Positions 946-58,263 of a stretch of DNA of 59,644 bases are shown here, piece by piece (within the stretch, counting starts at the first letter, position 1; every line of letters starts with the position of its first letter). Source of the DNA: a virus. Lineage: Duplodnaviria; Caudoviricetes. The stretch lies in IMG/VR virus record IMGVR_UViG_3300048592_000721, positions 1 through 59,644 of that record; one strand, 5' to 3'. The notes below the pieces were generated by a model. That model was not told the DNA's origin. It saw only the letters and a program-made list of their open reading frames with translations, and did no database searches. The position numbers were made by a program, and so were the translations under genes.

Positions 946-1082
946 ATAAAAACCGCCACACGATTTGCGCAGGCGGTAGGATTTGTGCTATGATACTCCC
1001 TATCCGTTACGCGCCCAAATCGCGTAATTCAATTCCAAGCCTCACAGGATTGCAGTCCTGCGGGGCTGATTTTTTTATTATA
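946..1082. ncRNA. bidirectional sRNA/attenuator-like element, copy A
   Basis: Homologous to 17391-17534. Plus strand: TTGCGC..TG-TATGAT promoter, two hairpins, T-tract. Minus strand: TATAAT (1077-1082) and terminator ACCGCC/GGCGGT-TTTT. Confidence 0.6.
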
Positions 1083-1230
1083 GCCGGGAGGAGGGGGATT
1101 CGGAATAGTGTGAGGAATCACGCTTAAAGCGAGAAGCCTTGCAAACTGCAAGGCTTCAATCGTCAGTGCGTGAACTCTGGCTTCACGCTGCCGCTCGCGC
1201 GTCACTTGCCGCGAGCAAAAAATTAGTATG

Positions 1231-1301
1231 AGCGGGGAGCAGGGATCGAACCTGCGCCTACTCGTTGGAAACGAGTCGTCCTACCACTGGACGACCCCCG
1301 C
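1231..1301 (-). tRNA. tRNA-Gly (TCC)
   Basis: Cloverleaf GCGGGGG/TCCCCGC, anticodon arm ACTCG-TTTCCAA-CGAGT, T-arm GGTTCGATCCC. CCA is not encoded. Confidence 0.93.
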
Positions 1302-8588: not shown

Positions 8589-9701
8589 ATGCTGCTGGCG
8601 GACGAACTCGACGCGCTGGTTGATCCCATCGTAGCGCTTTACGAGCAGTACACCCAATCGGTCATCAATGACATTGCCCGCCGACTGGCTGGCATGGATA
8701 TGACGGCGACGGCGGCATGGCAGATGCAGCGCCTGACGGAATCGGGACTGGTGTACGAAAATGCCCTCGATGAACTTGCCAGAATTACAGGCAGGTCAAA
8801 GAGGGTTTTACTCGAAGCCTTTGAAAAGGCGGGCGTGCAATCCCTGGCTTTCGATGATGCGATTTACACAGAAGCGGGGTTGAATCCGCTGCCGCTGAAT
8901 TTATCTCCCGCGATGGCGCGAGCTTTGGCGGCAGGGCTGAATAAGACTCAGGGCATTATCTCCAACTTGACCATGACCACAGCTTCGAGCGGACAACAGG
9001 CGTTTATCTCTGCGGCTGACCTGGCTTATATGCAGGTGGCAAACGGAGCGATGAGTTATGACCAGGCTATCCGCGCTGGAATCAGGCAGGTGGCGCGGGA
9101 TGGGCTTTCTGTGATTTCCTATCCCACTGGACGAGCCGACCAATTGGATGTCGCCATGCGCCGCACGGTTCTGACGGGCGTGTCTCAGACGACTGGCGTC
9201 ATGCAGATCGAGCGTATGAACGAGATGGGCGTTGACTTGGTGCAAACGTCGGCTCACATTGGCGCGAGACCAGCACACCAGTTATGGCAGGGACGGATTT
9301 TTTCGCGCTCAGGCAGGGATGGACGGTATCCCGATTTTGTTGCTGAGACAGGCTACGGGACGGGACCGGGGCTGATGGGGTGGAATTGCCGACATTCGTT
9401 TTATCCCTTCTTCGATGGGAGTTCAAAGAACGCCTACAAAAAGCGTGAGTTGGAATCGTTTTCCAATGCAGTAAAAACTTATCAGGATAAGGAAATAAGC
9501 GTGTACGACGCAACTCAAATCCAGCGCGGAATCGAACGAAAGATTCGCGCTTGGAAAAGACAGGCATATGCTTTTGAATCGGCGGGGTTGGATAATGCCC
9601 GTGAGATAGCCAAAATCAGGCTGTATCAGGCTGAGATGCGGGCTTTCATCAAGCAGACGGGTTTGAGTAGGCAGTATGTGAGGGAGAGCGTTTGTAACTA
9701 A
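8589..9701 (+). CDS. phage minor capsid protein (Phage_min_cap2-like)
   Basis: SAHIGARPAH..WQG and GWNCRHSFYPF motifs. The last codons are supplied by the MITE end. Confidence 0.85.
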   Translation: MLLADELDALVDPIVALYEQYTQSVINDIARRLAGMDMTATAAWQMQRLTESGLVYENALDELARITGRSKRVLLEAFEKAGVQSLAFDDAIYTEAGLNPLPLNLSPAMARALAAGLNKTQGIISNLTMTTASSGQQAFISAADLAYMQVANGAMSYDQAIRAGIRQVARDGLSVISYPTGRADQLDVAMRRTVLTGVSQTTGVMQIERMNEMGVDLVQTSAHIGARPAHQLWQGRIFSRSGRDGRYPDFVAETGYGTGPGLMGWNCRHSFYPFFDGSSKNAYKKRELESFSNAVKTYQDKEISVYDATQIQRGIERKIRAWKRQAYAFESAGLDNAREIAKIRLYQAEMRAFIKQTGLSRQYVRESVCN

Positions 9702-10014
9702 AAGGATAAAGTGGCCGCAATTTAAGCATAAAGTGGCCGCATTTTAGCCTGCTGACAATGTGCAATTGAAAAAAACTGGAATAGATTTAAAGGATAAAAT
9801 GACCGCAAATTATTTTTTGAAACCATAATGTGGCCGAGAGTTTAGATTGGATTTTCTTAGTAAAAGGTTGTTTTTCGTATTGAACGTAGATATTGGCGTA
9901 TTTCGGATTTCTTGTTGAATAAAACCATACCATGTTGGGCGTCGTGCCAGTTTTTATAACTATGCTTTTAAAGGATAAAGTGGACTAAGCGGCCACTTTA
10001 TCCTTTTAGTTACA
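9693..10014. mobile_element. non-autonomous 322-bp transposon (MITE) with TGT...ACA ends
   Basis: Perfect 26-bp TIRs (TGTAACTAAAAGGATAAAGTGGCCGC) at 9693-9718 and 9989-10014. 5-bp TSD GCGTT at 9688-9692 and 10015-10019. Internal GGATAAAGTGGCCGC-like repeats. Confidence 0.9.
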
Positions 10015-10098
10015 GCGTTGTGAGGGCTTAAATAAAAATGCCCAAGTAGGACGAGGGGGGCGTCCAACAAGGGCAAGACGAATTATAGCAGAATTGCT

Positions 10099-10338
10099 TT
10101 ACAAGTCAAATTTGTTTTTTGCGTGTTTGATGATTTTAGAAAAAACAGGGATACTCATCACAAACACCAATATCCAAGTACCAACCCAGAAAGCAAAATC
10201 CGTCTCGTCGGGGTACTTTATTGTGAACATCCATATTGCACCAGTCACAATTGCGTCCCACAATTGCTTTGCCAAGCCTTCGCCAATTTGCATATTTACC
10301 TCTCTATTCTTTACGAATATGAGGGCAATTTGTTTCAC
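10099..10338 (-). CDS. small membrane protein
   Basis: ORF with two hydrophobic segments. Start uncertain. Confidence 0.35.
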   Translation of the reverse strand: MKQIALIFVKNREVNMQIGEGLAKQLWDAIVTGAIWMFTIKYPDETDFAFWVGTWILVFVMSIPVFSKIIKHAKNKFDL

Positions 10339-10365
10339 TCAAACTACAACCTTGGTAATTGACCG

Positions 10366-10410
10366 ACCATCTCATCAATAGCGGACTCCGTCTCGGACAT
10401 ATCCGCCCGC
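10366..10410 (-). pseudogene. relic duplicate of the RM enzyme C-terminus
   Basis: 39/45 nt match to 10753-10797. Encodes ADMSETESAIDEMV versus ADTSKEESAIDELV. Confidence 0.65.
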
Positions 10411-10446
10411 TGATACTCTACCTTTACCTTCGCGAGCATATCTAGT

Positions 10447-10695
10447 TTATAAGTAATCATCTGGGACTTTCCCTTCTTCAACTACAACAAATGCACCCAA
10501 CTCTTTTGTGTCATCCCCAATTACCCAAGTCACTTGGATAACCTTACCTTCCATTGCTGTGCTAGCAGTCGATGAATCGTCCAAAATAACTACATGATCT
10601 CCCACTCTAGGAATAGGTATCTTTTTATAGTCAAACCTAAAAGATTTTGTTCCATTTGCGTTAATGATGTCAAAGGAAGTTGTTTTTTTTGTCAT
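10447..10695 (-). CDS. hypothetical protein
   Basis: 82-aa ORF coupled to the RM gene stop. Confidence 0.6.
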   Translation of the reverse strand: MTKKTTSFDIINANGTKSFRFDYKKIPIPRVGDHVVILDDSSTASTAMEGKVIQVTWVIGDDTKELGAFVVVEEGKVPDDYL

Positions 10696-13600
10696 TATTC
10701 TTTTCCTTCCACAATCTTGACTTCTTCCTCACTCAACCCATACAACTCATACACCAACTCATCAATAGCGGACTCCTCCTTGGACGTATCCGCCTGCGGA
10801 TTCCCTCTCTTCGCCGCCAATATTTGATCTACCAGTTTGACGAAAGGTTTTTGCTTCTCGTCAGAAATTCTCCGAACGGGAATCTCTGAAAGTGGCTTTT
10901 GGTATAGTTCGAGCATTTCCCCTTTTCTTTTACCCCGATTATAGAGCCAAAGAAAATAAAGCTTTGAATTCAACAATGCCAAAATATATTTAAGGGATAC
11001 AGACGTGTCTTTTTGTGTAATGAAATATACGTCTGCACTTGCATACCAAGGTATTTCGTTATATCCAAATGTGTTTGCATAACTTCTTTGTGGCGCAACG
11101 ATTTTTGGAGTAGTGAAATCAAACTCTTTTCTTGCAGATGAGAGAGCCCACCACTTTCCTAAATTCTTTGCTTTGCTCAACTCACCACTTTCGTAGTTTC
11201 TGGATTTTATGATCGACTCGAATCTTGACAGGTGTTTATAAACATTTTTATGCTTCGGGAGATCTGTGTCTGTGGTAACTTGAATAACCCATTTGGTGTT
11301 TCGGGTGCTCGTATAAAATTTTCCTATGTCAGAATTTTTGAACCAGGGTTTTATAATTACTTTGTCGTCAAGCCTTTTTGCGGTAGCGCTATCAATGACA
11401 TAAACACCCTCGCCGTTGGTTATCTGTAATTTTGGGTGCTTTTCAAAATGCTTTTTGGATATTTTATCTATGCCAGTAACTATACCTTGGCTTATGTGGC
11501 ACAAAATTCCGAGATCTCTATAATCAACTTGCATTTTCTGCAAAATATTTTGAGTGGTATTGCTGGCATCTACTCCATTTGAATTGCTTGTTCTTATATA
11601 GTTTTGCGTACCATCGTACAAGTCAGATTGCTTTACGCTTGAGTAATTAGTTTGGCTATCTGTTTTATTTAATATTGAGTGTAATTCATCGGGGGTTACA
11701 GTTCCTGTGCGATTAGTTGACACTATTTCGCAAAGACTATTTGCTTGTGGTTTTGTTAGCATTGTTATTAAGTTGTGTTGACCCGTTGCTGATTCGAATA
11801 CAGTTATTTCTCCTAAATTTACAAGTTTAGAAATAGAGACTCGACTCTTGAAGTCAGTTCTTAATTTCACAGCACTATCTGCAGTTGAATAGTAATTCGT
11901 TGTAATAAAAATAATTGTAGAATTTTTCCCACTCAAATCAATAGCCTTATGGAAAAAATAGTAAAAAAGATCCATTCTTTCATTGTTAAATCTTTTCCCT
12001 AAAGATGTTTCCTTCATTCTTCTAAAGAATTCTTTTTGCCCACCTTTATGACCAACATATGGCGGGTTTGCAATTAGTATGTCAAACCCATTTTTGTCAT
12101 GAAAGACTTCAGAGAAATAAATGTCAAAGTCGAATTGTGCATGTCCGTTTGTTATCTGTTCAATCAAACCATCAATCTTCTTTTTGTACTCCTGCTTTTT
12201 AGTAGGGTTAGTCACGTTGAAGTATAAAGGTTTCAAGGACTCAAGTTTGGCGAATAAATGTGCGTTGAACAAATTCTTTTCAACCCCAACTAATGAATTG
12301 CCACACACAACCTTATAGTCCAAGTTGGGCAAAGGCTTGATGTTTTGCGGGTCGTCTTCATCTACCACCAACGAGAGCCACAGGCGTAGTTTGGCAATTT
12401 CCACTGCGCCTGAGTCAATATCTACACCGTAGAGCGAGTTTTCAATACACTCGCGTTTGAAGTCATACACTGTCTTTTTGATTTTCGACCATGTTTTCAG
12501 CACATTCCGCGCACGTACGATCTCGCTCATCATGCCCACGGGGAACGCACCGCTGCCCACCGCAGGGTCACATACTTTGATGTTCGCCAGTTTTTCATCG
12601 ATCAATGCCGCGTTCTTGCGGATGGATTCAGCAATAATGGGGGAATAGGTTCCAGTTTCTTTGTTAGCGGCTTGGGCTTCGTGTTCGCGTAAATCTTCAC
12701 CGTGCTGAATCAGCAAAGCAATTGCTTCCTTTGTAGGCAACTCCGCTGGTTGAGTAGGACGAGTGCTCTTCTCGTCCGTATCGAAACCAGCAGTGGGGTT
12801 TAGCTCCGTGTGCAGGTAATTGATCAAGCTCTGCTGGCACATGTAATGCACGATCTCGCGCGGGGTGTAATACACGCCATACTGCTTGTTGAACTTGCTC
12901 TCTTCGCCCTTTTTGCCGCTCTCCAATGCCTTTAGGAATTCCCCATAATTGTCGGGGCGGATGGCGTTGAACTTTTCGTATGCCTTGCCGAGCAGTTCGG
13001 GGTCGATTGCCACTTCTTTTTCGAAAGGCTCATCTTCCTTCACCGTAAAGTTATAGCGGTCAAAGATGTCCAGAATGCCGTCGCCCGTATCGCCTTCATC
13101 GGTCTTATTTTTATTCGAGAACAACTCGTTGGAAAGCAGAATTTCCGTCTTGACCCAATCGTAATTATTCATGGGGTCGAACAGTCCGCCGTTCAGGAAG
13201 GGGATCTTGCAATCGAAGAGCCTGTAATAATGGTCATCGTGACTGCGATCCATGCGCAGGGCGTCATAAAACAGAGGTTCAAGGATGTCGTTGAAGAAGT
13301 TCTTGTAATCGCCGTGCTTCTTCTCGAACAGTTCGCGCAAAAAGTTCTTCGAGCCGTCGCCCCATGCCGCCTCGGTGGGTACGCCGAACCAGCCCTTCTT
13401 TTGCAGGTAATACAAAAAGACGATCTGCCCCAGCAGTTTCTTGGCAAGGTTCACCGTGTCGATGTCCTTACTCCTGAAATCGGCTTTTGTCTTCGCGTTT
13501 TTATCAATCGTCTTATCCAGTTCATCCTTTGTCCAAATGAACAACCCGCGATACTTCTCGAAGAACTCCTTCGTCACCTTCTCGATGTTGAAGGCTTCCT

Positions 13601-14159
13601 CCAATTGCGCCAGCGTCGGGTTCTTATCGGTATCTGCCATCATCGGCACGAACTGCTTCTGCGCCGTGTGACTCTTTTCATGACTCCCCACCAGGAATGA
13701 CCAGCGCCTCGCAGGTGTAAACTCATCTTTGACCTTGATCTGCCCCTCGTCATTCGCCTCCAGCTTAACCTCCAGCTTGACCAGCGAAAAACGCCAATCC
13801 TCCCCGTTGGGCGCTACAAAAGCCACCAGAGCGGCTTTCCTGTCTTTTCTGCTCAAATACTTCGCAATGAAATTTCTCTGCATGGTGCGGGCGCGGTCAA
13901 CCGACCCATCCCGCCTCAAATGGACGATCAACACATCGATCTCATCTTCGCCGTCCGAATACTTCGCCACCCGCTCGAACAGGCTCACATGCTTATCGAA
14001 GTCATCGAAAATCAAGTTACCCTTGTATGAAAAGGTCGCGGTCGCGCTAAAATCCGCCTCATTCAACAAAGACTTGATGAACTTGATATACCCAGCCTTA
14101 TCAAACTTCGACTGGAACGTATCCTTAATAAGATCGATTGCCCATTGATTTTTATTCAT
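10695..14159 (-). CDS. type IIG (Eco57I-like) restriction-modification enzyme with TaqI-C-like TRD
   Basis: LNGGLF, GVYYTP, DPAVGSGAF (motif I), ANPPY (motif IV) and C-terminal LALLNSKL/IDELVYELYGL. Confidence 0.88.
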   Translation of the reverse strand: MNKNQWAIDLIKDTFQSKFDKAGYIKFIKSLLNEADFSATATFSYKGNLIFDDFDKHVSLFERVAKYSDGEDEIDVLIVHLRRDGSVDRARTMQRNFIAKYLSRKDRKAALVAFVAPNGEDWRFSLVKLEVKLEANDEGQIKVKDEFTPARRWSFLVGSHEKSHTAQKQFVPMMADTDKNPTLAQLEEAFNIEKVTKEFFEKYRGLFIWTKDELDKTIDKNAKTKADFRSKDIDTVNLAKKLLGQIVFLYYLQKKGWFGVPTEAAWGDGSKNFLRELFEKKHGDYKNFFNDILEPLFYDALRMDRSHDDHYYRLFDCKIPFLNGGLFDPMNNYDWVKTEILLSNELFSNKNKTDEGDTGDGILDIFDRYNFTVKEDEPFEKEVAIDPELLGKAYEKFNAIRPDNYGEFLKALESGKKGEESKFNKQYGVYYTPREIVHYMCQQSLINYLHTELNPTAGFDTDEKSTRPTQPAELPTKEAIALLIQHGEDLREHEAQAANKETGTYSPIIAESIRKNAALIDEKLANIKVCDPAVGSGAFPVGMMSEIVRARNVLKTWSKIKKTVYDFKRECIENSLYGVDIDSGAVEIAKLRLWLSLVVDEDDPQNIKPLPNLDYKVVCGNSLVGVEKNLFNAHLFAKLESLKPLYFNVTNPTKKQEYKKKIDGLIEQITNGHAQFDFDIYFSEVFHDKNGFDILIANPPYVGHKGGQKEFFRRMKETSLGKRFNNERMDLFYYFFHKAIDLSGKNSTIIFITTNYYSTADSAVKLRTDFKSRVSISKLVNLGEITVFESATGQHNLITMLTKPQANSLCEIVSTNRTGTVTPDELHSILNKTDSQTNYSSVKQSDLYDGTQNYIRTSNSNGVDASNTTQNILQKMQVDYRDLGILCHISQGIVTGIDKISKKHFEKHPKLQITNGEGVYVIDSATAKRLDDKVIIKPWFKNSDIGKFYTSTRNTKWVIQVTTDTDLPKHKNVYKHLSRFESIIKSRNYESGELSKAKNLGKWWALSSARKEFDFTTPKIVAPQRSYANTFGYNEIPWYASADVYFITQKDTSVSLKYILALLNSKLYFLWLYNRGKRKGEMLELYQKPLSEIPVRRISDEKQKPFVKLVDQILAAKRGNPQADTSKEESAIDELVYELYGLSEEEVKIVEGKE

Positions 14160-14173
14160 AAAATTTTCCCTTG

Positions 14174-17100
14174 TTACTTCAAATACATACTCAAAATAAC
14201 TTCACGCTTCCCCGCTGACCTCGGGTTCTCGTCCACATAATGACTTCCCAACAGCCCTGCGGGGATCGTCATTCGCAGCAGTCCCAACACTTTCAGCGGA
14301 GATGTCCAATCTGAGTTATTGGCATTCAAAGCCTTAAGCGTGGCTTTAATGGTTTGTTTGGGTAAACCGCCCACTTTCAATTTCTCGATAATGGCTTGCA
14401 CAACGGCTTCCTGTTCCTCAGTTAATTGCTTGGTGTTTTTGAATACCGCCATAAGGATTCGCAAGACTTTCTCGTCACTGCCTCTGCCTTTGCGGGTTTG
14501 CAGTGTCATCGCTTCCTCGGTGGTCGCTGCAATGAAGGCATCCTTGTTCTTATCCAGCAGGTCGTAATACGCTTCCGAGACCTTTTCTCTCTTCTCGTCA
14601 GGCGTACACGCCAGCGTCTCCGCAGCTGCGATCAAATCAAGCTCCCATGCATCAAGATTATCGCCAGCGATAAAGAACTTCTGCACCTTCCCCTTGCGGA
14701 AATATGTAATTAGTGAATTTTGCAAGGATGGGTTGCTCTTGCCTGAACGCGCTTTTCTTGGCAGGTACTTAATCTTCTCGAACAAATCCTCATCGTTGTC
14801 GCGAATATCTTTAATGATTTTCAGGTACTTCAATTCGCTGGTTTCCGAACCATCTTCGCCAGTGATCGTTTTTTTGGAAATCAAACGGTCAAATAATTCA
14901 TGCGACCCAACAGGCTCTCCCTCGGTTAACAGCGCAGCGTCTCCGCCCAACAGCGAAAGGAAAGCGTTGATCTTTGCCTCTGCCGCTTCCTTGAGCCCGA
15001 TCTCGTTATTGGCTTGTGTAGTGGGAAAGAAGTTGAAGGTATAGATCGTGTCAAACTTCGTATCCACACGGTTGATACGTCCCACACGCTGCATCATGCG
15101 CGTCGGGTTCCACGGGATGTCGTAATTAATCACCACGTTGGAACGGTGCAGGTTCACGCCTTCCGAGAGAACTTCCGTGGCAACTAGAATGCGGTAATCA
15201 TTCCTCGGGTTCTTCGCCTTTGCATCGAAATTCTTGATGATGGTCTCGCGCACCCCTTCGCCTGACCCGCCCGAAAAACAAACTGCCTGATCTTTATGCG
15301 CCTTGTTGATATTCAGTGTCAGGTATTCCGCCGTCTCTTTTGATTCGGTGAACAGGATGATCTTGTTTTCCTTCAATAGCTTATTCTTTGAAAGCTGCTT
15401 CAACAGCGCCAATAGTTTGGGGTCGCGTTCCACGGTATCCCAAAGCTTTTTCACTTTCCTGAGAATGGCAAGGTCGCTCTTGAGGTAGGTCAGTAGTTCA
15501 GGGCGGAATTCACTGCTCTTGTACTTCTCCGCCTTGCCTTCTTCGATCAGGTGTTCCACTGCATCATCATTATCATTGTCGAGATATTCGAATATTTTAT
15601 AAGTATGCTTCTTGCTGGTGTAAACATTGCCCTTTTCAAACTCCCTGATGAATAGTTCATAAGAGTGAATGAACCTGCTAATGGAATTACGGAAGGCAAA
15701 GAAACTGCTTTCCAGCCGTTTGATGAGCAATATCTTCATGAACTTTCCCATGTTCCTTTGGGATTGTTCTTCCAGTTGGTCGAGCGGCTTTTTCAAATAC
15801 AGCAGGGGCGTGTAACGCGCATACTTGAATTCCTGTGAGAGCAATTCCATTGTCGCGTTGAAGACCTTGTCCTCTTCATCGTTCAATTCATAGTAAAGAG
15901 GCTCTGGCGCGGCAACATCTGGAAAGCGCAGTCCCTGTTTCTTCATGTCCTTGCCGAAGAAGTCAATAATCTCCGCGCGGGTACGGCGCACCATCAGGTA
16001 TTTCAAGACCTTTTCGCGAATTTCCTTTGAGTTTGAGCGTACCGTAGCGAGATAGTCTTCATAATCCGCCTGTCGATCCAGATCGGTCAGGTTCTTTGCC
16101 AGCCCCTTGAAGAAGTCTTCAATATCAGGCATATTGGGAATCGTGCTTTTCTTCGAGTTCTGGAAAAGCTTAATCTCGCTCAAAATGTCCCACGGTGAGT
16201 TGTTGTATGGTGTTGCAGTTACGAGAATAACGCGCTTGTTACGGCAAATTTCCGCCAGCATTTCATACGTGCGGTTGCCTTCATTGCGGAAGCGGTGCGC
16301 TTCATCAATGATGACGTTCTTGTATTTATCGGTGTCGCGTTCAAGCAAATCTTCCAGCTTACCGATGGATTCGAAATCCGCTGCAACTCTGAAATCAGAG
16401 AAAGCGTTCGGCCACGAACCAGGGTTATCTCTGTCCAAAAGCACAGGCGGCGCAATAACTAATGTCCTGCCATCCAACTGTCCAGCCAGCAACGTGGCAA
16501 TGTACGTCTTACCCAAACCTACCACATCAGAAATAAAGACACCGCCGTATTCTTCAACGATCTTCTTGGCGTTCAGAACTGCCTGTTCCTGATATTCAAG
16601 TCTCATGAAGTTTTCAGGCGTGTAATTGACAAATACCTCATCGGTCTGGTTTAGTTCGTCCTTGAAATATTCGTACAAGAGTTTCAAGTAAAGTTCGTAC
16701 GGGCTGATATCCTGACTAAGCCATGTTTTGGTTTCGATGGTTTCAATATATTTATCGCTGATGTCAACCGCGTCCAGCCATAGTTGCTCGAACTTATCAC
16801 GCGCGAATTTATGGTCTGCGGCATTCTTGAGTTCCACATTGAATTCAAGGTTTTCCACCAATCCAGATTGTGTCAGGTTGCTTGAACCAGTAATCACCCG
16901 CCCTGTATCTCTGTCACCTTCCTTGAAGGTCACAATATAAACCTTCGCGTGAATATTTTGCGAAGGATATACCTTTATTTCCAGTTTCCCGCTTTTGATC
17001 CATTCAATGAACTTTGCAACACCCAATTCAATGTTTTTGCTGTCCAGTGAATCTTCCAATTCCTTGGTCAGTTGATTAACAAATAAATCTTTGGCTTCCT

Positions 17101-17362
17101 TGCGGGATGGGTCAGCCAGTTCAAGCTGCTTTTCCACTTTTGCTGTTTGAAACAAATCAAAGGTACTTTTATCCGTGCTAATTCCCACCAGAATTCTGAT
17201 CTTCTCCGTGCCTTCAAGCGATTGATAAATGGCATAAAACCCGCTTGTGTAAAAATAACCCGACAATACATCGAAAAAACGGGCATCCCTGATAAGGACA
17301 TTGAATCTGTCCTTTAGGCTTTGTCCGTTCTCGTTCGTAATGAAAGTGAGATCTGTGGTCAT
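14174..17362 (-). CDS. PLD-domain nuclease fused to SNF2/DEAD-type helicase
   Basis: HAKVY...GSSN PLD motif, DVVGLGKT Walker A, DEAH, TATP and QRVGRINR. Confidence 0.88.
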   Translation of the reverse strand: MTTDLTFITNENGQSLKDRFNVLIRDARFFDVLSGYFYTSGFYAIYQSLEGTEKIRILVGISTDKSTFDLFQTAKVEKQLELADPSRKEAKDLFVNQLTKELEDSLDSKNIELGVAKFIEWIKSGKLEIKVYPSQNIHAKVYIVTFKEGDRDTGRVITGSSNLTQSGLVENLEFNVELKNAADHKFARDKFEQLWLDAVDISDKYIETIETKTWLSQDISPYELYLKLLYEYFKDELNQTDEVFVNYTPENFMRLEYQEQAVLNAKKIVEEYGGVFISDVVGLGKTYIATLLAGQLDGRTLVIAPPVLLDRDNPGSWPNAFSDFRVAADFESIGKLEDLLERDTDKYKNVIIDEAHRFRNEGNRTYEMLAEICRNKRVILVTATPYNNSPWDILSEIKLFQNSKKSTIPNMPDIEDFFKGLAKNLTDLDRQADYEDYLATVRSNSKEIREKVLKYLMVRRTRAEIIDFFGKDMKKQGLRFPDVAAPEPLYYELNDEEDKVFNATMELLSQEFKYARYTPLLYLKKPLDQLEEQSQRNMGKFMKILLIKRLESSFFAFRNSISRFIHSYELFIREFEKGNVYTSKKHTYKIFEYLDNDNDDAVEHLIEEGKAEKYKSSEFRPELLTYLKSDLAILRKVKKLWDTVERDPKLLALLKQLSKNKLLKENKIILFTESKETAEYLTLNINKAHKDQAVCFSGGSGEGVRETIIKNFDAKAKNPRNDYRILVATEVLSEGVNLHRSNVVINYDIPWNPTRMMQRVGRINRVDTKFDTIYTFNFFPTTQANNEIGLKEAAEAKINAFLSLLGGDAALLTEGEPVGSHELFDRLISKKTITGEDGSETSELKYLKIIKDIRDNDEDLFEKIKYLPRKARSGKSNPSLQNSLITYFRKGKVQKFFIAGDNLDAWELDLIAAAETLACTPDEKREKVSEAYYDLLDKNKDAFIAATTEEAMTLQTRKGRGSDEKVLRILMAVFKNTKQLTEEQEAVVQAIIEKLKVGGLPKQTIKATLKALNANNSDWTSPLKVLGLLRMTIPAGLLGSHYVDENPRSAGKREVILSMYLK

Positions 17363-17390
17363 TATCAACCTTTATTTTTTCTATAAACGC

Positions 17391-17534
17391 ATAAAAAAAC
17401 CGCCTGCACAATTTGCGGAGGCGGTAGGAATATGCTATCATCACCCTAACGACTGCGCGGCGGAATCGCGTAGTGCATTTCCAAGCCTTGTGAGATTGCC
17501 GTCTCATGAGGCTTTTTTATTTCGCGCAATTATA
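17391..17534. ncRNA. bidirectional sRNA/attenuator-like element, copy B
   Basis: Homologous to 946-1082 with compensatory stem changes. Directly upstream of the helicase-RM operon. Confidence 0.6.
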
Positions 17535-17573
17535 CGCCCAAACAGGTCGAAATCAAAAATAGAATAATTGTGC

Positions 17574-17679
17574 TATAATGCCGCTAATCGACATGGGCAG
17601 GTGAAAACCTATCCCACTCACGCCTGACTGAGTTCACAGAAACCGAGGCGCTCTTAATTGAGCGTCTCGGTTTTTTTTT
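17574..17679 (+). promoter_or_regulatory. head/tail operon leader: extended -10, GCCYGACTGA-N7-GAA motif, terminator
   Basis: TG-C-TATAAT, GCCTGACTGA at 17622, hairpin ACCGAGGCGCTC/GAGCGTCTCGGT followed by a T-tract. Confidence 0.6.
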
Positions 17680-17736
17680 GTTAATTCGGCGGGACATCTA
17701 CGACGCAATGCCAGCGGCAATGGCAGGAGACTCAAA

Positions 17737-18459
17737 ATGAACAACTTACTTCTTCGACCTCGTGTGTTTTATGACGCTAACTCCAGCGGTGGTGGTGGAG
17801 GATCAAACAACGGTTCCAATGGCGACGGAGGGAACGGTCAAGGTCAACAACTTGAAGATTTATTCAAGGTGCTTGAACGCTATCCCCAAGAAGCAAAGGA
17901 CAAGGTTTTTGGCGCACGAGCAACGCAGGCACGGAACAGCGCAATTACGGATTTGCTCAAGGAATTGGGCGTAGAAAGCGCCGAATCCCTGAAAGCCGTC
18001 ATCACGAAGGCAAAAGAAGCCGACGACGCGCAGAAATCCGAACTGCAAAAGGCGCTGGACAAGGCAACTACGGCAGAGAAGGTTCTCGCCGACCAGAAGA
18101 CTGCTCACGATACCGCCCTCGCGGAACTCGAAAAGCGGATTCAGGACAGCGAGATCAAGATCGCCGCCGGGCGCGAAGTCAAGGACAAGGACGGGAAGGT
18201 TATCCGCCCGAAATTCCGTGAAGACGCTCTCGATGTGGTTCTGACCACTCTCGACCGCAAAGCCATTGTCCTGAAAGACGGCGCGTACAACGGCATCGAA
18301 GAAGCCCTGACAGAGTTGGCGACGGCAAAGACCTTCCTGCTGGAAGCGGAGCCGACGACAACCACAAAAGGCTCTCCAACGGACAACAAATTCCGCAAGC
18401 CGAATAAACCAAAATCCAATACGGAGGATGACGAAAAGCCATTCTTCCAAACACTGTAG
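17737..18459 (+). CDS. capsid scaffolding protein
   Basis: Acidic coiled coil with KSELQK motif, upstream of decoration and MCP genes. Confidence 0.7.
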   Translation: MNNLLLRPRVFYDANSSGGGGGSNNGSNGDGGNGQGQQLEDLFKVLERYPQEAKDKVFGARATQARNSAITDLLKELGVESAESLKAVITKAKEADDAQKSELQKALDKATTAEKVLADQKTAHDTALAELEKRIQDSEIKIAAGREVKDKDGKVIRPKFREDALDVVLTTLDRKAIVLKDGAYNGIEEALTELATAKTFLLEAEPTTTTKGSPTDNKFRKPNKPKSNTEDDEKPFFQTL

Positions 18460-18468
18460 GAGATTCTC

Positions 18469-18906
18469 ATGACTGACATTGCACTCGATACCAGTCGCAA
18501 AGTAAACGTGGTCTTTGCTGAGGAAGCGGAGATCCGCGACTTCAAAGAAGCCGAAACCCTCTCTGTGGGCGACTCGGTTTACATCACCGCCGCAGGCAAG
18601 GCTTTGAAAACCAATGCCGACGGCGTAGCCCCCGCGAAAGCGCAGGGGCGTGGGATCGTCACCATGCGCACCGGCTCGACCGTAAGCGTGATGAAAAAGG
18701 GATACCTTGCGGGGTATGACCTTTCAGCGCTCGATTATGACGCGCAGTTGTTCCTCAGCGAGACAGCGGGAAAACTGGCGGACGCTGCCGGGACCATCCC
18801 TGTTCCGTGTGGGCGCGTTTCGTGCCTGACCAACGACAGCCAGACCAAAATTCTGTATGTCGAATTCGACTGGATCAACCAGTTTGCCGCTCCCGAAGGA
18901 GGCTAA
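18469..18906 (+). CDS. head decoration/cement protein
   Basis: AETLSVGDSVYI..G and FLSETAGKL beta-tulip-like pattern. Synteny. Confidence 0.65.
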   Translation: MTDIALDTSRKVNVVFAEEAEIRDFKEAETLSVGDSVYITAAGKALKTNADGVAPAKAQGRGIVTMRTGSTVSVMKKGYLAGYDLSALDYDAQLFLSETAGKLADAAGTIPVPCGRVSCLTNDSQTKILYVEFDWINQFAAPEGG

Positions 18907-33417: not shown

Positions 33418-33444
33418 GTATTTTCTTATCCAGTTAAGTGTTCA
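33418..33444 (-). promoter_or_regulatory. representative copy of TGAACACTTA-..-GGATAAGAAAATAC intergenic motif
   Basis: About 13 full or partial copies, always sense to the downstream gene (see findings). Confidence 0.7.
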
Positions 33445-33490
33445 GGTAAATAAAAATCCAGCCTTGTCAGGGCTGGATTTTTATGCTCGT

Positions 33491-35373: not shown

Positions 35374-35453
35374 GGACTTTCTCCTTATTGGAAACAGAGT
35401 ATTTTCTTATCCAGATAAGTGTTCAGAAAAAGAAAAATCCCGCCGAAGCGGGA

Positions 35454-35932: not shown

Positions 35933-35983
35933 TTGATTTCTCCTTGTATTTTCTTATCCTGTTAAGTGTTCATCAGCCTTGAT

Positions 35984-36886
35984 TTACAGCAAAGCGGGCT
36001 GTTTCCATGCACGAATTTCCTCGGTGATCTCAACCAACCGCTCAGGATCAGCCGACTGCGCTTCACGGTAGGCAGACTTATACGGGTCGGGAATCGCTCT
36101 CAATTCGACTTCGGAGACGGCAAGAGCGCACTTAATGGAAAAGCCATTCAAGCCGTGCAGGAGGATGTTTACCTTCGCCATGTTTACGCAGGTTTGGTCA
36201 ATGTCCATACCGTAGAAGCGGACGAAATTCCAATCCAGCATCCAAGGCGGGACCGTTGACGCGGCGGCGAGAAACATCACACCGGAACCGCATGCGGGGT
36301 CAAGGACAGTGACAGGCTCAATATCGACGGCGACGGTGGGCAGGACTCTGCTGAAAAACCAATCTTCGGCTTGGGCTGAATCTTTCATTCCAAGACTGGC
36401 TATTAACATTGCTTGCGCCAGCGGATTTTCACTGCACGCGGTCTTGATGCGCTCGTGAACCAGCGCGGGGATGTCATCCATTGTCATATCTGCCATCAAT
36501 TTGGCAATGTGAAACGGCGTGAAAAATTGCCCGCTGTGTTTGTTCGCAATCCCGAACTCCATGTACACGTCGCCGATGGTGTCGTTCCAGTCATCTTCCG
36601 CGCTGAGTATCAGGTAGCCTAATGCCTCGGCGAAGCGTTCAAAGTAGATGGGTTTGCGGTAACGCTCGCGCAGACGCTGGAATCGTTTTTGTACTTCTTC
36701 CGTGTCATCTGCTGGTTTGCCTGTAGTTGCAACTGCACGGACGTGGTCTGGCAGCCTTTCGAGGGAGTCCAGCGCGAGATTCAAGAAGTCGTCAAAGATG
36801 TCATACGGACTGACGCCACTTGATGTGATGCTTTCCAGCGTCTTGATGATCTGCTTTTTGTAATCGGGTGCGCCTCTTGGTTTCAT
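35984..36886 (-). CDS. HsdM-like N6 methylase fragment (motif I only)
   Basis: GQFFTP, DPACGSG and GMDID present. No NPPF/Y before the stop. Confidence 0.75.
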   Translation of the reverse strand: MKPRGAPDYKKQIIKTLESITSSGVSPYDIFDDFLNLALDSLERLPDHVRAVATTGKPADDTEEVQKRFQRLRERYRKPIYFERFAEALGYLILSAEDDWNDTIGDVYMEFGIANKHSGQFFTPFHIAKLMADMTMDDIPALVHERIKTACSENPLAQAMLIASLGMKDSAQAEDWFFSRVLPTVAVDIEPVTVLDPACGSGVMFLAAASTVPPWMLDWNFVRFYGMDIDQTCVNMAKVNILLHGLNGFSIKCALAVSEVELRAIPDPYKSAYREAQSADPERLVEITEEIRAWKQPALL

Positions 36887-36930
36887 ACTCGAACAAGTGT
36901 TCAGACACGCAAAAATCCCACGCACGAAAA

Positions 36931-37232
36931 ACGCTTGGGGCGACCTGTGAGGTGTCTTTCTCTTTGAGTCTGGGTGTTATGTGTCTGACGCTTGGAAAAT
37001 CGCTTGTAGAGCATGATCTGAAAAAAAACTCTTGGGACTTCCTTAGACGAAAAAAAACATGCAGACACTTCATTCAGTGTGCTGCATGTGCTAGTTTCGG
37101 GCTTATCGGGGCTTGTGACGCGATTTTGGAATCAGGCTTCTTGGGACGCACGGAAATCAGGAATTTGGGTAACGATATGCAGAGTTGCAGAACGGGGTCT
37201 TAGAATCGCTTGTGACGCGCTTCGTGAAATTT
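36931..37232. repeat. composite non-coding repeat (three ~90-bp units)
   Basis: 37043-37232 is homologous to 57400-57590. 36931-36985 is homologous to 50516-50570. Confidence 0.8.
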
Positions 37233-41224: not shown

Positions 41225-41997
41225 TTTTTACTCTGATAAGCGGATATGTTCTCGACCTGAGCGGTTCACGAGCCGCCCAGGTCTTTGAGGAGGGAACACC
41301 ATGCGTACACCACATACGCAGTTTGTTCGGGAGGCTCCCGCGCCGCAGGACTTACGGCGCGGGGTGAATTTGCCTCCCAAGAGCAGATGACTGGACTTGA
41401 ACCAGTGACCTCCGAATTACGAGTTCGGTGCGCTGCCAACTGCGCCACATCCGCGTGATGCAGGATGAAGGGAGCCTATCCTGCATAGATCAAGCCTCTT
41501 AACAATAAAGTGGAGTCCGAGGCGTTGATTTCAAAAAAGTGAGTGATCCAGCCTTTGGCACTTTGCCACATCCCTGAACAATTTGCCGCTTTCGCGGAAG
41601 TCTGCATTTTTACTGTCAGGCACTCACTATTATTCGAAATTTGGAAGCCGCGCCGCTCTTATGGTTTGAGCGGAACCATTGCTCACCGCTCGCGACTTCC
41701 TGCAATTAGAGATTCGAGATAAAGGCTGGCGAAGTTCTGCGTGACAAGGCTTGCCTTGATGACACGCACCGGACTTTGTCTTTCACGGCTTCCGATTGTG
41801 CCGACCAGCATTTTTCCATCGAGCCTGTTACTCATTACCGTGGGTTCAGGCGCGCGCGAGTCTCTCTGCTCGATGGACTATGAAACGGGCGGCTGACTTG
41901 AACAGCACCTGCATCCATCCCATGAGTTCAGGACAAGACCATGACTCACTGGGCGACCCGTAACATTCGATTTTCAAGGTGATCCACGCCGCCCCAT
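41225..41997 (-). ncRNA. candidate large structured ncRNA containing tRNA-Thr
   Basis: No convincing ORF. Continuous series of long-stem domains. Begins right after a TGAACACTT motif copy. Confidence 0.5.
41382..41454 (-). tRNA. tRNA-Thr (CGT)
   Basis: GCGGATG/CATCTGC acceptor, CCGAA-CTCGTAA-TTCGG anticodon arm and GGTTCAAGTCC T-arm. Confidence 0.92.
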
Positions 41998-42034
41998 GTT
42001 TTCTTACCCAGATAAGTGTTCAAGAAACAAAAAA

Positions 42035-43396
42035 TCAACCTGTATATGCGGCATCCCTGAAAGTCGTGAATTTTTTTAGGTATTTCAGGTTTACGCTTCC
42101 GGTTGGACCGTCGCGGCGCTTGGCTACGATGCACTCGGTGTAATCCTTTTTGCCGTACTGATCGAGATATAGAAAGATGACTGTATTTGCATCCTGCTCG
42201 ATTCCGCTGGAATCTTTTAGGTCCGCAAGTGTTGGGCGTTTTTCTGTCCGTTGCTCCACGCTGCGATTAAGCTGAGCGGCAGAGATAACCGGGATGTCAA
42301 GTTCACGAGCAAGAAGTTTGTTCTGGCGTGATATGTGACCAACTTCCAATGCGCGGTTGGCGAAATTTCCACCACCGGACATCAATTGAAGGTAGTCTAC
42401 GATTACAAGGTCAAGACCATATTCACGCTGGATTTGCAAGCACTTTGCCCGAAGCGTGACTGGTGTAAGGTTGCTGATATCTGACAGGAATATTTGCCCT
42501 CTGTTTTCGTACAGTTCAATAGTTTCGTTAAAGCGGATCCACTCTTCACTGTCAAGACCGCCAGTCTTGATTTTTGTAGTTTCGATCATCGCTTCCTGAG
42601 AGATAAACCTTCTCACAACCTCTTCGCCGTTCATTTCCAGTGAGAAGATCGCGACATTTTTTCTTTGCTTCAAAACATTGTGCCTAGCAACGTCGAACAA
42701 AAACGAGGTTTTTCCTTGTCCAGGTGGTCCAGCAACGACAATATTTTCCTGGTTTTCCAATCCAAGAAGTAGCAGGTCAAGGTCGAGTAGCCCTGTCTTA
42801 ATTCCAGTGATAATTGATTCGCCTTTGGCGGTTCGCTCGGCATTGCTGGCGGCGCGGTCATATACTGCCGATATGCACGTTTTGAAAAAATCCTTGTCAT
42901 TACCTTTACTGGTCGAAATCGAAATAATCTCGCGGCTGGCTTCTTCTATCGCTTCCTCCGCTGAGAGCGTCGCTTTATAGGACAGGCTGGCTATCTTATT
43001 CGCTGCTGACAACAACTTGCGCCGAACCGAGTGACCTTCGACGATGCGCCCGTAGGATTCCGCATTCAGCGAAGACGGAACCTGGTTGATAAGCGAGGTC
43101 AGGTATGCCGACCCGCCAGCCTCCGCCAGTTGATTGACCCTTTCCATTTCCTCGGATACGGTCAGCAAATCAACGGACATCCGCTTTTCGTTGAGCCTGT
43201 CATAAGCCTGCCATACCCACTTATTGCGCTCGATGTAAAAATCATTGGCTGAAAGGAATTGCGCGATGTCGTAATAAACATCAGGGTTGATCAGCACTGC
43301 GCCGACTACTGCTTCTTCGGCTTCGCGGCTGTGCGGAACAGTCGTGCTCGTCATCTCTTCGACTTTTTCTTCTGGTGGGTAAAGTTCGTCGCTCAT
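42035..43396 (-). CDS. dnaB: replicative DNA helicase
   Basis: PHS.EAEEAVVG, GPPGQGKT, IVDYLQLM, AQLNR and IEQDA. Confidence 0.95.
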   Translation of the reverse strand: MSDELYPPEEKVEEMTSTTVPHSREAEEAVVGAVLINPDVYYDIAQFLSANDFYIERNKWVWQAYDRLNEKRMSVDLLTVSEEMERVNQLAEAGGSAYLTSLINQVPSSLNAESYGRIVEGHSVRRKLLSAANKIASLSYKATLSAEEAIEEASREIISISTSKGNDKDFFKTCISAVYDRAASNAERTAKGESIITGIKTGLLDLDLLLLGLENQENIVVAGPPGQGKTSFLFDVARHNVLKQRKNVAIFSLEMNGEEVVRRFISQEAMIETTKIKTGGLDSEEWIRFNETIELYENRGQIFLSDISNLTPVTLRAKCLQIQREYGLDLVIVDYLQLMSGGGNFANRALEVGHISRQNKLLARELDIPVISAAQLNRSVEQRTEKRPTLADLKDSSGIEQDANTVIFLYLDQYGKKDYTECIVAKRRDGPTGSVNLKYLKKFTTFRDAAYTG

Positions 43397-46306: not shown

Positions 46307-46547
46307 GCTGTTTTCACCTACCCTGATAAGTGTTCATAAAGCGGAATTTCCGAACCAATAACCGATTGCGGAAGTACCTTTAGGATTGCCGTAGGCGTGA
46401 ATAAGGCAAGCGTAAAGCCGCGTTTGACGCGGCTCTGATGTTTAGGGTGGATTTTTGGGGAAGGGGTCTTGTAGGGCTGGAAAAATAAAAACTTATTCAG
46501 ATAAAAAAATACCCGTCCATTTGGACGGGTATTTTTTCGTGTGTCGC

Positions 46548-48792: not shown

Positions 48793-49653
48793 TGGGTTCA
48801 GCTTTTCAGTTTTTGGTAGGTTTGCTATGGGTAAATATTGCCGAATCGCGTCTTCGGTGATGTTTCGGGTGTAACGATCCACCATTTCCAGATTTGACCA
48901 ACGCCCTGCCACCATAAGAGTTTTAGACGGTGCGCCGAGCAAAGTAGAGATCGTGGCAAACGTGCGTCTGGCATCGTGTGGAGAGAATTCAAAGCCGACC
49001 TTCCTGCTCCATTTGCGGAATATCATTTTGATTCCGTGTCCAGTGAGAGGTTGTCCGTTGTTCCTGTTGTTTAGAAGATTCACAAAAAGAGTATCGACAC
49101 CTTTGGCAGGTTTGCGAAATTCCAACCACGATGCTATATAAAAAGCGGTCTGTTGTGAGTATGCTCCAGTCCCCCATTGCCCTCCCTTTACAACTACTTG
49201 AAGGTTAAGTTTTTCGAGGTTCACGTCATCGAGCTTAAGCCTTGCCAGTTCTGCGCGACGGAGTCCTGTGTCTATGGCTATGGCGAGAATTGCAAGGTCA
49301 CGTGATCCAATCGCAGTGGAAGTATCAAATGATGCAAGCAACTCGACCAGTTGATCCATAGTCAGGGCGCGCTGCTTTTTAGGGTGAACGCGCTTGATCC
49401 GAGCCGACAGCGCTGGATGGACTTGACCATATCTCCAAGAAATAAATGAGCGACAAGCGCAGAGGGCAACATATTGTTGCGTGTTCTGCTGAGGATTCCC
49501 TTTGATATTTGCTTTTACAAATGACAGTAGGTCGGATGCTGTCCAAGATGGAAGGTCTTCGACTACTAGTTTTTCCAAGGTGCGGCGATACGAAACCTTT
49601 GTGGATTCGCTGTATTCTCCCGATGCAAGAAAGTCTTCTACGAGTGTTCCCAT
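48790..49653 (-). CDS. int: tyrosine integrase
   Basis: TGLRRAEL (R), VKGG (K), HDARR (HxxR), GRW and RYT (Y). GAGGA RBS before MGTLV. Confidence 0.9.
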   Translation of the reverse strand: MGTLVEDFLASGEYSESTKVSYRRTLEKLVVEDLPSWTASDLLSFVKANIKGNPQQNTQQYVALCACRSFISWRYGQVHPALSARIKRVHPKKQRALTMDQLVELLASFDTSTAIGSRDLAILAIAIDTGLRRAELARLKLDDVNLEKLNLQVVVKGGQWGTGAYSQQTAFYIASWLEFRKPAKGVDTLFVNLLNNRNNGQPLTGHGIKMIFRKWSRKVGFEFSPHDARRTFATISTLLGAPSKTLMVAGRWSNLEMVDRYTRNITEDAIRQYLPIANLPKTEKLNP

Positions 49654-55962: not shown

Positions 55963-56187
55963 GGTTTGCTCCTTCTATTTTCTTATCCTGTTAAGTGTTT
56001 ACTCAAAAAGAAATCCCGCCTCTGCTTTCGCTTCGGCGGGATTTGCGCGGTGGGTGACTTCTCGGTATTCATACCATGCTGTCGGGGGGAGATTCCGCGC
56101 TTGATTGCGACGCTGATCATGATGTCGGATAACTCGCTTGATGCTCATGGTAACGACCTGCAAGGATTTCACGCGCACACCAACGGG

Positions 56188-57328: not shown

Positions 57329-57399
57329 GGGAAAATTCCAAGAAAAAACTTTTATAAACTTTTTTGCAATGAATTTGCAATGCGTCTCTTGGGGCGACT

Positions 57400-57590
57400 T
57401 TAGACGAAAAAAAACATGCAGCCACTTCATTTGTGGTGCTGCATGTGCTAGTTTTGGGCTTATCGGGGCTTGTGACGTTTTTTTGGAATCGTGATTCTTA
57501 GGACGCACGGAAATCAGGAATCTGAGTAACGATATGCTAAGTCACAGAACGGGGTCTTAGAATGGCTGGTGACGCGCTTTGTGAAATTTG
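57400..57590. repeat. second copy of ~190-bp non-coding repeat
   Basis: Clear homology to 37043-37232. Confidence 0.85.
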
Positions 57591-57593
57591 AAA

Positions 57594-57692
57594 CGGGCGT
57601 GGATTCTGCTTGGGAGCAGGAAAAATCCGAAGCCAGAAAAATGCTTGAAAATGCCGCCGAATCCCCAGCGTCGGATGCACGCTTTATTAGGC
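57594..57692 (-). repeat. attC: truncated/degenerate attC (cassette 3)
   Basis: R'' mutated to GCCTAAT. CCCCAGCG-T-CGGATG-C-ACGC arm present. Partner arm and R' missing. Confidence 0.7.
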
Positions 57693-57723
57693 GCGGTTTT
57701 ATGAAACTTTGACTCCATGCTTG

Positions 57724-58263
57724 TTAAAGTTTTACTTCTGATAAGTCATCCAACAATTTCTTTACTCGTACTCTTAATGATGGTTCAGGGTCATTATCTC
57801 TATAGGTGTCATTGAGCGTACAAATAGCCTTTATTTCGCCCAACCACACACCAAAACGATTAGGCGTTAACGGGTTAGTTGAAACGGCTGCTATATATTC
57901 AGCAATGAGACTATTAAGATAAACAGTTTGCTGTAAGTAATCATGCAGTTTTGATTGTATTTCTGGTTTAATAGAAAGTGATGATGTCGTCTCAAATAAA
58001 TGCCGTTCTACATTTGCTGTGCCAATGGGCGTTAAAGCCTTGTTTGGCAATTCCTTGCTGTCAATTCTGTCATGATTGTATCCGATGAGCCAAAGAGCAT
58101 GGAGGAGTTCTTGTTTTAATGCGTTTATCTGAGTCGTTTTCTCCCGCTTCTTATCGTTTTCTGCTTTTTGCCAATTCATGACTGAATTGAAAATAGCCGC
58201 TGAGAGACCGCCCGTAAGCGCACCCAACAACCACGGAAACCAAACAGGAAATGATTCAGGCAT
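57724..58263 (-). CDS. cassette 3 protein, N-terminal TM, unknown function
   Basis: ORF between attC sites with a GGAG RBS. Confidence 0.7.
   Translation of the reverse strand: MPESFPVWFPWLLGALTGGLSAAIFNSVMNWQKAENDKKREKTTQINALKQELLHALWLIGYNHDRIDSKELPNKALTPIGTANVERHLFETTSSLSIKPEIQSKLHDYLQQTVYLNSLIAEYIAAVSTNPLTPNRFGVWLGEIKAICTLNDTYRDNDPEPSLRVRVKKLLDDLSEVKL

Follow-up and report, generated by a model that had tools for sequence, protein, structure and literature searches.

A probable antisense-RNA attenuator in front of defence and accessory cargo in a phage and in one Chloroflexi family

Counter-transcript-driven transcription attenuation is known from the rep genes of plasmids such as pT181 (RNAI/II), pIP501 (RNAIII) and pAMbeta1. 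Phages P1 and P4 have the C4 and CI RNAs, respectively, which arise from the sense transcript by processing and target complementary stretches in that transcript or in a related one. For anti-phage defence, most of the regulation known so far is carried out by proteins, such as C proteins and WYL/BrxR-type repressors. According to two further reports, the cis-encoded antisense small RNA (sRNA) RnaG attenuates transcription at the icsA leader in Shigella flexneri (PMC5394118), and antisense RNAs regulate the EcoRI restriction-modification (RM) system, in which the antisense promoters lie inside the restriction gene (PMC3141266). Here we describe a module of ~160 bp that occurs twice, as copies A and B of one architecture, in the virus record IMGVR_UViG_3300048592_000721. 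The record is a complete phage genome of 59,644 bp with 127-nt direct terminal repeats; it was analysed over its whole length and is called the window in the following. The module probably represents a portable cis-antisense sRNA combined with a transcription attenuator, the two being convergently transcribed, and would bring a known regulatory principle into a new setting, namely antisense attenuation heading defence cargo. From the DNA sequence we infer that the module is transcribed, where its RNAs begin and end, and in which direction the sRNA would act on expression.

The two copies share the blocks AAAAACCGCC, TTTGCG, AGGCGGTAGGA and TGCTAT.AT, a TTCCAAGCC linker and a GATTGC(A/C)GTC apex, while the stem of hairpin 1 is formed by GTTACGCG/CGCGTAAT in copy A and by ACTGCGCGG/TCGCGTAGT in copy B. 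In the alignment of A with B, three pairs of hairpin 2 are altered on both sides; hence, the compensatory changes claimed by the original prediction can be found, as can the duplicated element with all features described for it. It also lies where it had been placed, but extends slightly further, up to minus-strand -35 boxes at 1100-1105 and 17551-17556. Identity amounts to 78% over 210 nt and 85% over a 114-nt core, and copy A finds copy B in a within-genome BLAST with E = 1.5e-14. Plus-strand stretches of ~80 nt fold into two hairpins with -27.9 kcal/mol (z = -4.3) in A and -31.8 kcal/mol (z = -4.65) in B, which was reached by none of 200 shuffles for each copy. The anticipated plus-strand unit of promoter, ~75-nt RNA and terminator is seen as an extended -10 box (TGCTATGAT or TGCTATCAT) ~7 nt before the two-hairpin stretch and a T-run behind it, and a consensus scan places the ends of terminator-like sites at 1068 (A) and 17514 (B). 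On the minus strand, both copies likewise carry the expected series of TATAAT, leader and terminator ahead of the gene: the TATAAT beyond the T-run is followed by a leader of ~100 nt, an ACCGCC..GGCGGUUUUU hairpin with U-run (terminator T) and then the gene. The scan also called the minus-strand terminator of copy A and the minus-strand promoter of copy B (Table 1); the corresponding TATAAT of copy A (1082-1077) and terminator of copy B (17425-17393) were read from sequence and folds. The 5' end of the predicted sRNA-A was set by its -10 box, and all RNA ends are predictions from promoter and terminator motifs.

A covariance model (CM) made from the two window copies only, on which sRNA-A scores 137 bits and sRNA-B 130 bits, was used to search bacterial genomes. 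Among the genomes holding phage relatives, it gave three strong matches (93, 56 and 43 bits), all on other contigs of one metagenome-assembled genome (MAG). In a genus sample, to which all three MAGs with phage relatives belong, 18 of 95 genomes matched at E <= 1e-4 with up to eight copies per genome. The family sample contained 27 matching genomes out of 151 at E <= 0.01 (19 of 151 at E <= 1e-6). At E <= 1e-4, the order sample gave 6 of 151, three of which already belonged to the family sample, and the phylum sample 3 of 151, none of them outside this family. Because of these counts, the module can be regarded as concentrated in one Chloroflexi family among the genomes searched. It is native to this family, whose members are the likely hosts of the phage, and heads many defence operons there. 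The following comparisons are based on 65 copies, i.e. on every match in the examined loci that scored 35 bits or more.

The CM alignment of the 65 copies, in plus orientation, shows 95.8% of 1200 cells paired in hairpins 1 and 2, with 15 of 21 pairs changed on both sides; none of 500 shuffles reached any of five measures, and slid controls were paired to 34-50%. Hairpin 2 covaries in this alignment, as the original prediction demanded of homologues. Because the CM alignment was fitted to the model, the counts were redone on a MAFFT alignment fitted to no structure, which holds 55 of the 65 copies in leader orientation and excludes nine copies without hairpin 2 as well as L242_2053. On the leader strand of this alignment, T is paired to 92.4%, hairpin 1 to 94.2% and hairpin 2 to 80.4%. 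Strand-specific wobble cells, i.e. cells that make a G-U pair when read on one strand but an A-C mismatch when read on the opposite one, were then counted. Hairpin 2 has 104 such cells pairing only on the plus strand and 10 pairing only on the leader strand, hairpin 1 has 16 and 2, respectively, while terminator T shows the reverse ratio with 16 and 73. In 55 of 61 copies hairpin 2 is also more stable on the plus strand, by 5.6 kcal/mol on average (Wilcoxon p = 2e-10). The opposite wobble bias therefore shows that selection has acted on two RNAs encoded by one stretch of ~160 bp, a plus-strand RNA with hairpins 1 and 2 and a minus-strand RNA with T. A YUNR U-turn motif is present in the loop of hairpin 1 on the leader strand of 35 copies out of 65 and on the plus strand of 21, which is not decisive. 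A conserved small open reading frame (ORF) was not seen in the leader by eye.

The promoter and terminator motifs are conserved on both strands as well, so that each strand carries a promoter and a terminator of its own across the 65 copies, as had been proposed for the two of the window. TGnTAnnnT occurs at the position of the sRNA -10 box in 43 of them, and at least five T within nine positions follow hairpin 2 in 51. For the leader, a -10 box with at least four of six positions matching was found in 56 copies; a -35 box of the same quality at 16-18 nt is often TCGACA or TTGACA, with a 17-nt spacer and TATACT. In 47 of 63 copies, no more than 90 nt separate the T loop from the start of the longest downstream ORF. 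A separate promoter would hardly fit in between, hence transcription of the gene must pass through T. Like counter-transcript attenuators, the module thus has, as judged from sequence, an antisense promoter inside the leader and convergent with the mRNA promoter; an intrinsic terminator between antisense target and start codon is indicated by the pairing and wobble of T and by the ORF distances.

An attenuator of this kind needs alternative folds of the leader, and a candidate was found in the segment directly 3' of hairpin 1', GCGG-A-UAGGG, which is complementary to UCCUACCGC including the 5' half of T. This pairing, termed P3, is formed in 85.4% of cells on the MAFFT alignment vs 18-54% in slid controls, and four of its eight pairs show changes of both partners; these make up 23 cells vs 11.0 +/- 2.7 in shuffled alignments (reached by none of 500). 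Covariation support for P3 is moderate. By eye, correlated differences follow subfamilies (UAGGG/UCCUA, UGAGGG/CCCUUUCA, AAAACGGA/UCCAUUUU). In minimum free energy (MFE) folds of a nascent leader cut in the T loop, CCGCC pairs with its P3 partner in 44 of 65 copies; the MFE fold of the full-length leader contains T in 39 of 65, and in 56 once the region under the sRNA is kept from pairing. The -10 box of the sRNA lies within the P3 loop, the whole sRNA promoter of copy A being situated inside the terminator loop and the P3 loop of the leader, and the sRNA is predicted to begin with AUCCGC..., the complement of the GCGGAU that starts P3. Another antiterminator, between the 5' strand of hairpin 1' and the loop plus 3' half of T, appears in some MFE folds (copy A, L208); it is not kept in L182-L185 and L191 by eye, and hairpin 1 is too invariant for a covariation test of it.

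The proposed mechanism can be described as follows. A sigma-70-type promoter on the minus strand would start the cargo mRNA, whose first ~125 nt form a leader; this leader ends in T, in most cases some tens of nt before the start codon. Inside it, the extended -10 promoter of the plus strand would give rise to an sRNA of ~75 nt, in which a short 5' tail is followed by hairpin 1, which hardly varies, then by a linker and finally by the variable hairpin 2, the terminator of the sRNA itself. Over the first ~70 nt of the leader, complementarity to the sRNA is perfect. In the nascent leader, P3 may delay or block T and let RNA polymerase read into the cargo. If the sRNA is bound to the leader, it would cover hairpins 2 and 1 together with the GCGGAU of P3, leaving CCGCC free to form T and to stop transcription. 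Cargo expression would accordingly rise in a burst after the module has newly entered a cell or after a drop in the sRNA level, and would be low otherwise.

In the window, copy A precedes the cassette array and copy B the helicase-RM genes, in agreement with what had been claimed. The array downstream of copy A on the minus strand consists of three small genes separated by ~127-nt attC-like repeats, the ends of which resemble integron attC core sites (…AAC / GTT…) by eye. The leader promoter faces the first cassette gene (811-140), i.e. the module occupies the promoter (Pc) position before the first cassette. An integron integrase beside the array was not found; the only PF00589 match of the phage is located at 48862-49368, roughly 8 kb away. 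The 9-mer TTCCAAGCC, which the linker has in common with the attC-like repeats, is in opposite orientation there and compatible with chance according to a rough estimate. For the cargo of copy B, the best PADLOC match is 'HKD+Snf2' (3.6e-50).

The survey of the gene context covered 61 first downstream proteins for the 65 modules, because L208 and L240 have too little flank and the tandem copies of L205 share a gene; the 65-aa ORF between the tandem copies of L242 was omitted, and the shorter ORF nearer to the terminator was used for L177 and L179. Defence-type Pfam domains (RM, helicase-nuclease, BREX, CRISPR-associated, toxin-antitoxin) were found in 33 of the 61. These are HsdR-type proteins (7), HsdM/N6_Mtase (5), a D12 methylase (1), PLD + SNF2 proteins including the one of the window (4), other SNF2, DEAD or ResIII helicases (6), NERD (3), BrxA (2), Cas_NE0113 (2), PIN (2) and Schlafen AlbA_2 (1). 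PADLOC agrees with this picture, since many of the proteins are matched by its models, among them Type I REase, Type I MTase, DrmD and BrxH. A CM built from both copies, with a test for enrichment before defence genes, had been proposed; the CM led to a wider family, whose cargo is not exclusively defence. Hence, the module heads accessory operons, and its association with defence is strong without being exclusive. Two examples illustrate this: the 16-kb locus L231 has two modules in a defence island with a PIN toxin, a Schlafen-type protein, a Gabija-like OLD-ATPase with UvrD and HsdR, and the 11-kb contig L230 has three co-oriented modules, one of them before hydrolase and ABC transporter genes. 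Tandem modules of different subfamilies on the same strand were observed at L205 (1267-1377 and 1501-1609), before a DUF4007 gene, and at L242 (1723-1833 and 2053-2153), before a DUF5655 gene, which suggests two attenuators in series, an arrangement kept in two genomes. Moreover, a tyrosine recombinase (PF00589) is encoded ~80-940 nt off the promoter side of the module in 6 of 65 copies (L232, L177, L212, L214, L217, L238), on the leader strand in all of these loci except L177, where it is on the opposite strand. The recombinase of L232 (2399-3457, PF00589 at 9.5e-22) is 26% identical to the phage's own integrase.

The phage itself carries genes for terminase, a minor capsid protein, a scaffold protein and others according to Pfam, and its nearest relatives outside the viral collection are contigs of MAGs labelled Chloroflexi or Anaerolinea. 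Relatives were gathered via the minor capsid protein, which gave nine viral and three genome loci, and the module was not found in the examined parts of any of them. Two relatives, the viral contig L039 and the MAG contig L166, have the phage backbone in common with the window at 76-90% identity, and the islands holding copies A and B are absent from both. Backbone similarity restarts at 1225/1228 and 17542/17551 of the window, immediately outside the modules. At the site of copy B, L039 has other minus-strand cargo behind the same backbone -35 box and no module. Copies A and B are both accessory, each within an accessory island. The closest relatives of the two copies are host copies, L207 for A and L206 for B with 83% identity each, and A and B are less than 80% identical to each other on the same alignment. 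Since each is nearer to a host copy than to the other, the simplest reading of the sequences is that the phage gained a module with its cargo from host-type DNA on two separate occasions, without a duplication within the phage. The PLD-SNF2 helicase type, which is the cargo of copy B, also follows host modules in L211, L227 and L181.

Several observations weigh against an antisense-controlled attenuator and need to be considered. One of the eight pairs of hairpin 1 never varies and only three are changed on both sides; this near-lack of covariation would also fit a conserved protein-binding site. Hairpin 2 is missing in nine of the 65 copies (L239, L225, L240, L226, L181, L173, L228, L218, L241). 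For P3, two of the five measures are not above shuffles (reached by 141 and 153 of 500), the wobble asymmetry is weak (40 leader-only vs 29 plus-only cells) and the comparison of fold energies is neutral (33 vs 32). The occurrence of T in 39 of the predicted free-leader folds means that termination could be the default, with an effect of the sRNA opposite to the one proposed. The -35 box of the leader is often weak, since only 31 of 65 copies reach at least four of six positions and copy A has three of six. Among the first downstream proteins, 19 of 61 have no Pfam match, five are ambiguous (a STAND-like ATPase, RNA_pol_A_CTD/HARE-HTH, a 5'-nucleotidase before a methylase, DUF4007 and DUF5655) and four are clearly non-defence, namely three nitroreductases and one CheB-CheR fusion. 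Copy numbers and taxon counts are approximate because the host genomes are MAGs. Finally, a search of sequencing runs listed no RNA run as carrying the module sequence. Reads on 9500-18500 from three DNA contig sets and one metatranscriptome contig set gave only diverged relatives, mostly below 95%, of the RM and helicase genes, and nothing on module expression.

It is conceivable, although unlikely in our view, that the module is a cis-antisense pair without a terminator switch, in which the promoters ~100 bp apart collide or occlude each other, or a double-strand RNase cuts the duplex, and T acts as a constant partial terminator setting a low basal level. The facing promoters, the overlap of each terminator with the opposite promoter, the presence of T in many folds of the free leader and the only moderate covariation of P3 would all be in line with simple interference. 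However, the pairing of P3 far above slid controls, with pairs changed on both sides, and the gain in predicted T upon blocking of the sRNA-covered part favour a switch, and the P3 sequences are conserved inside a promoter spacer, where conservation is not otherwise expected. The invariance of hairpin 1 leads to another possibility. As CUACGCG-N7-CGCGUAG, it might bind, as RNA or as a DNA operator, a common host factor that coordinates all modules in a protein- or ligand-controlled attenuator, with the sRNA being secondary. That hairpin 1 is almost invariant in the 65 copies while hairpin 2 varies freely, that a genome may hold up to eight modules, and that some modules precede small winged helix-turn-helix or WYL-like regulators (L200, L237; by eye) is compatible with such a factor, which we nevertheless regard as highly unlikely: the variation in hairpin 1 is of the G-U type on the plus strand (16 vs 2 cells), which agrees better with an RNA stem than with a symmetric DNA operator, the sRNA has a promoter and a terminator that are conserved as well, and no shared neighbouring regulator gene was found, the integrase at 6 of 65 copies being the sole recurrent upstream neighbour.

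A function at the DNA level, as a mobile promoter cassette or as a recombination hot-spot for the exchange of cargo with RNA structures as incidental terminators, appears extremely improbable, because the opposite strand-specific wobble of hairpin 2 and T and the covariation show selection on RNA. Terminal inverted repeats or target duplications were not seen either, by eye only and not by a formal test. What speaks for it is the position of both window copies exactly at island boundaries, the tyrosine recombinase gene just upstream of six of the 65 host copies and the attC-like cassette array adjoining copy A. Collectively, antisense-controlled attenuation as formulated in the original prediction is backed by promoters and terminators on both strands, covariation, wobble, the defence context and moderate support for P3, but has to be separated from the analogy with C4 and CI that came with it.

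The supposed likeness to P1 C4 and P4 CI is limited to a small RNA, predicted here, that is phage-encoded and restrains a potentially harmful gene. The analogy fails, since no such Rfam match occurs in the window, with no C4-type match in 850-1250 even at E <= 10, and since the mode of synthesis differs, the RNA of the module being read as made from a convergent promoter. As an analogy, the comparison with the plasmid rep attenuators is supported. These systems also have a small antisense RNA inside the leader, constitutive in the plasmids, and a terminator between target and start codon, and alternative leader folds decide on termination, as proposed for the module. Unlike them, the module controls defence and accessory cargo instead of a replication initiator, is present in up to eight diverged copies per chromosome and also in a phage, and has neither sequence similarity to them nor an Rfam family, its mechanism being a deduction. 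RnaG is reportedly ~450 nt long and a single-locus case, whereas the module RNA has ~75 nt and belongs to a multi-copy family with swappable cargo. With the EcoRI antisense RNAs, the module shares antisense transcription (predicted in its case) tied to restriction-modification; it differs by a dedicated terminator-bearing leader, by being portable and by being common to unrelated defence systems.

The module is a member of no curated RNA family. Rfam at gathering threshold returned two tRNAs only for the whole window, and the E-value mode applied to 850-1250 and six host loci gave only sub-threshold matches at chance level to RAGATH-27, the trpB motif and 5.8S. The weak leader-strand matches to the trpB ncRNA motif (RF04312) run from hairpin 1' through T, that is a hairpin plus a terminator, and with 16.9 and 30.5 bits vs a gathering score of 59 they reflect a generic likeness and no membership. 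BLASTN of copies A and B against the phage collection found no match. Three exact-pattern scans of viral contigs, from which the window's own record was possibly excluded, returned 35, at least 119 and 3 stretches, all due to chance; nothing aligned beyond the pattern, and the third set had no CM match. In the open-access literature searched, the module is described nowhere.

If the attenuator reading is true, one conserved RNA device would be common to type I RM, BREX, PLD-SNF2 and other helicase-nucleases, NERD, CRISPR-associated genes and PIN toxins in one lineage, and the same device would be carried by a phage together with defence cargo. It would provide a compact ~160-bp part for studying how toxic defence genes are silenced and released, and the presence of the module flags defence and accessory cargo in Chloroflexi genomes that are still poorly studied. 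A protein partner common to the modules, or cross-talk among them, could account for the invariance of hairpin 1. An extended version, which we consider quite unlikely, would make the module a portable 'governor' of horizontally moving defence cargo with networked copies: as the 5' tail and hairpin 1 are almost invariant, sRNAs, those of the two phage copies among them, could pair with the leaders of other modules. The cargo would then give a burst in naive cells, and phage sRNAs could silence host defences in trans. If this were true, the module would also serve as an RNA-based infection sensor, because decay of the sRNA after an infecting phage has stopped host transcription would set off the cargo. 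It raises the question whether phages can tap into such a network.

Table 1. Positions of the module parts, their cargo and further features in the 59,644-bp window
Feature	Position	Strand	Description
Copy A, entire module	946-1105		
Copy A leader terminator T	946-977	minus	ACCGCC..GGCGGU stem and U-run, before first cassette gene; scan match 972-956
Copy A sRNA promoter	965-994	plus	-35-like TTGCGC 965-970, TG 986-987, -10 TATGAT 989-994
Copy A P3, candidate antiterminator	973-1008	minus	CGG(A)UAGG (complement 1000-1008) pairs with CCUACCG (complement 973-981); MFE folds
Predicted sRNA-A, ~75 nt	1002-1076	plus	5' tail, hairpin 1 1006-1028, linker, hairpin 2/terminator 1038-1067, U-tract 1070-1076
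Copy A leader promoter	1077-1105	minus	-10 TATAAT 1082-1077, 17-nt spacer, -35-like TTCCGA 1105-1100
Copy B, entire module	17393-17556		
Copy B leader terminator T	17393-17425	minus	ACCGCCUCCGC..GUGCAGGCGG, then U7; fold
Copy B sRNA promoter	17413-17441	plus	TTGCGG 17413-17418, TG 17433-17434, TATCAT 17436-17441
Predicted sRNA-B, ~72 nt	17448-17519	plus	hairpin 1 17452-17474, hairpin 2/terminator 17483-17514 (scan match), U-tract
Copy B leader promoter	17529-17556	minus	TTGATT-16-TATAAT (scan match 17556-17529); -35 in backbone common to relatives, -10 in island
First gene after copy A	140-811	minus	223 aa, no Pfam match, RNNLFH (HEPN-like Rx4H) motif, attC-like repeat after it
Small-gene array	57590-59644 and 1-140	minus	three genes, each followed by ~127-nt repeat
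~127-nt repeats	1-127, 58311-58437, 59518-59644		shorter copy 57635-57700
Copy B cargo	10695-17368	minus	PLD + SNF2 helicase 14174-17368; Eco57I/MmeI-type methyltransferase 10695-14159 (Pfam)
tRNA-Gly(TCC)	1230-1301		phage-encoded
tRNA-Thr(CGT)	41381-41454		phage-encoded
204-nt direct repeat	37029-37232 and 57386-57589		87% identity
Seven-copy motif	33418-33459, 35399-35440, 35946-35987, 36877-36918, 41996-42037, 46310-46351, 55975-56016		~27-42 nt
Leader of scaffold gene	17560-17680	plus	extended -10 TGCTATAAT, ~95-nt leader, strong terminator

Some further features of the phage genome were noted (Table 1). Of its two tRNA genes, the one for tRNA-Gly forms the right boundary of island 1. The second copy of the 204-nt direct repeat stops exactly at the left boundary of the same island, and in L166 and L039 the repeat sequence is situated ~80-120 nt upstream of tRNA-Gly. 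Seven copies of a motif, GTATTTTCTTATCC.G.TAAGTGTTCA on the plus strand, stand directly upstream of minus-strand genes and may represent a phage-specific promoter or operator. The leader that precedes the scaffold gene is divergent from the leader promoter of copy B, is kept in L039 at 13330-13450 and looks like a late-gene antitermination leader.

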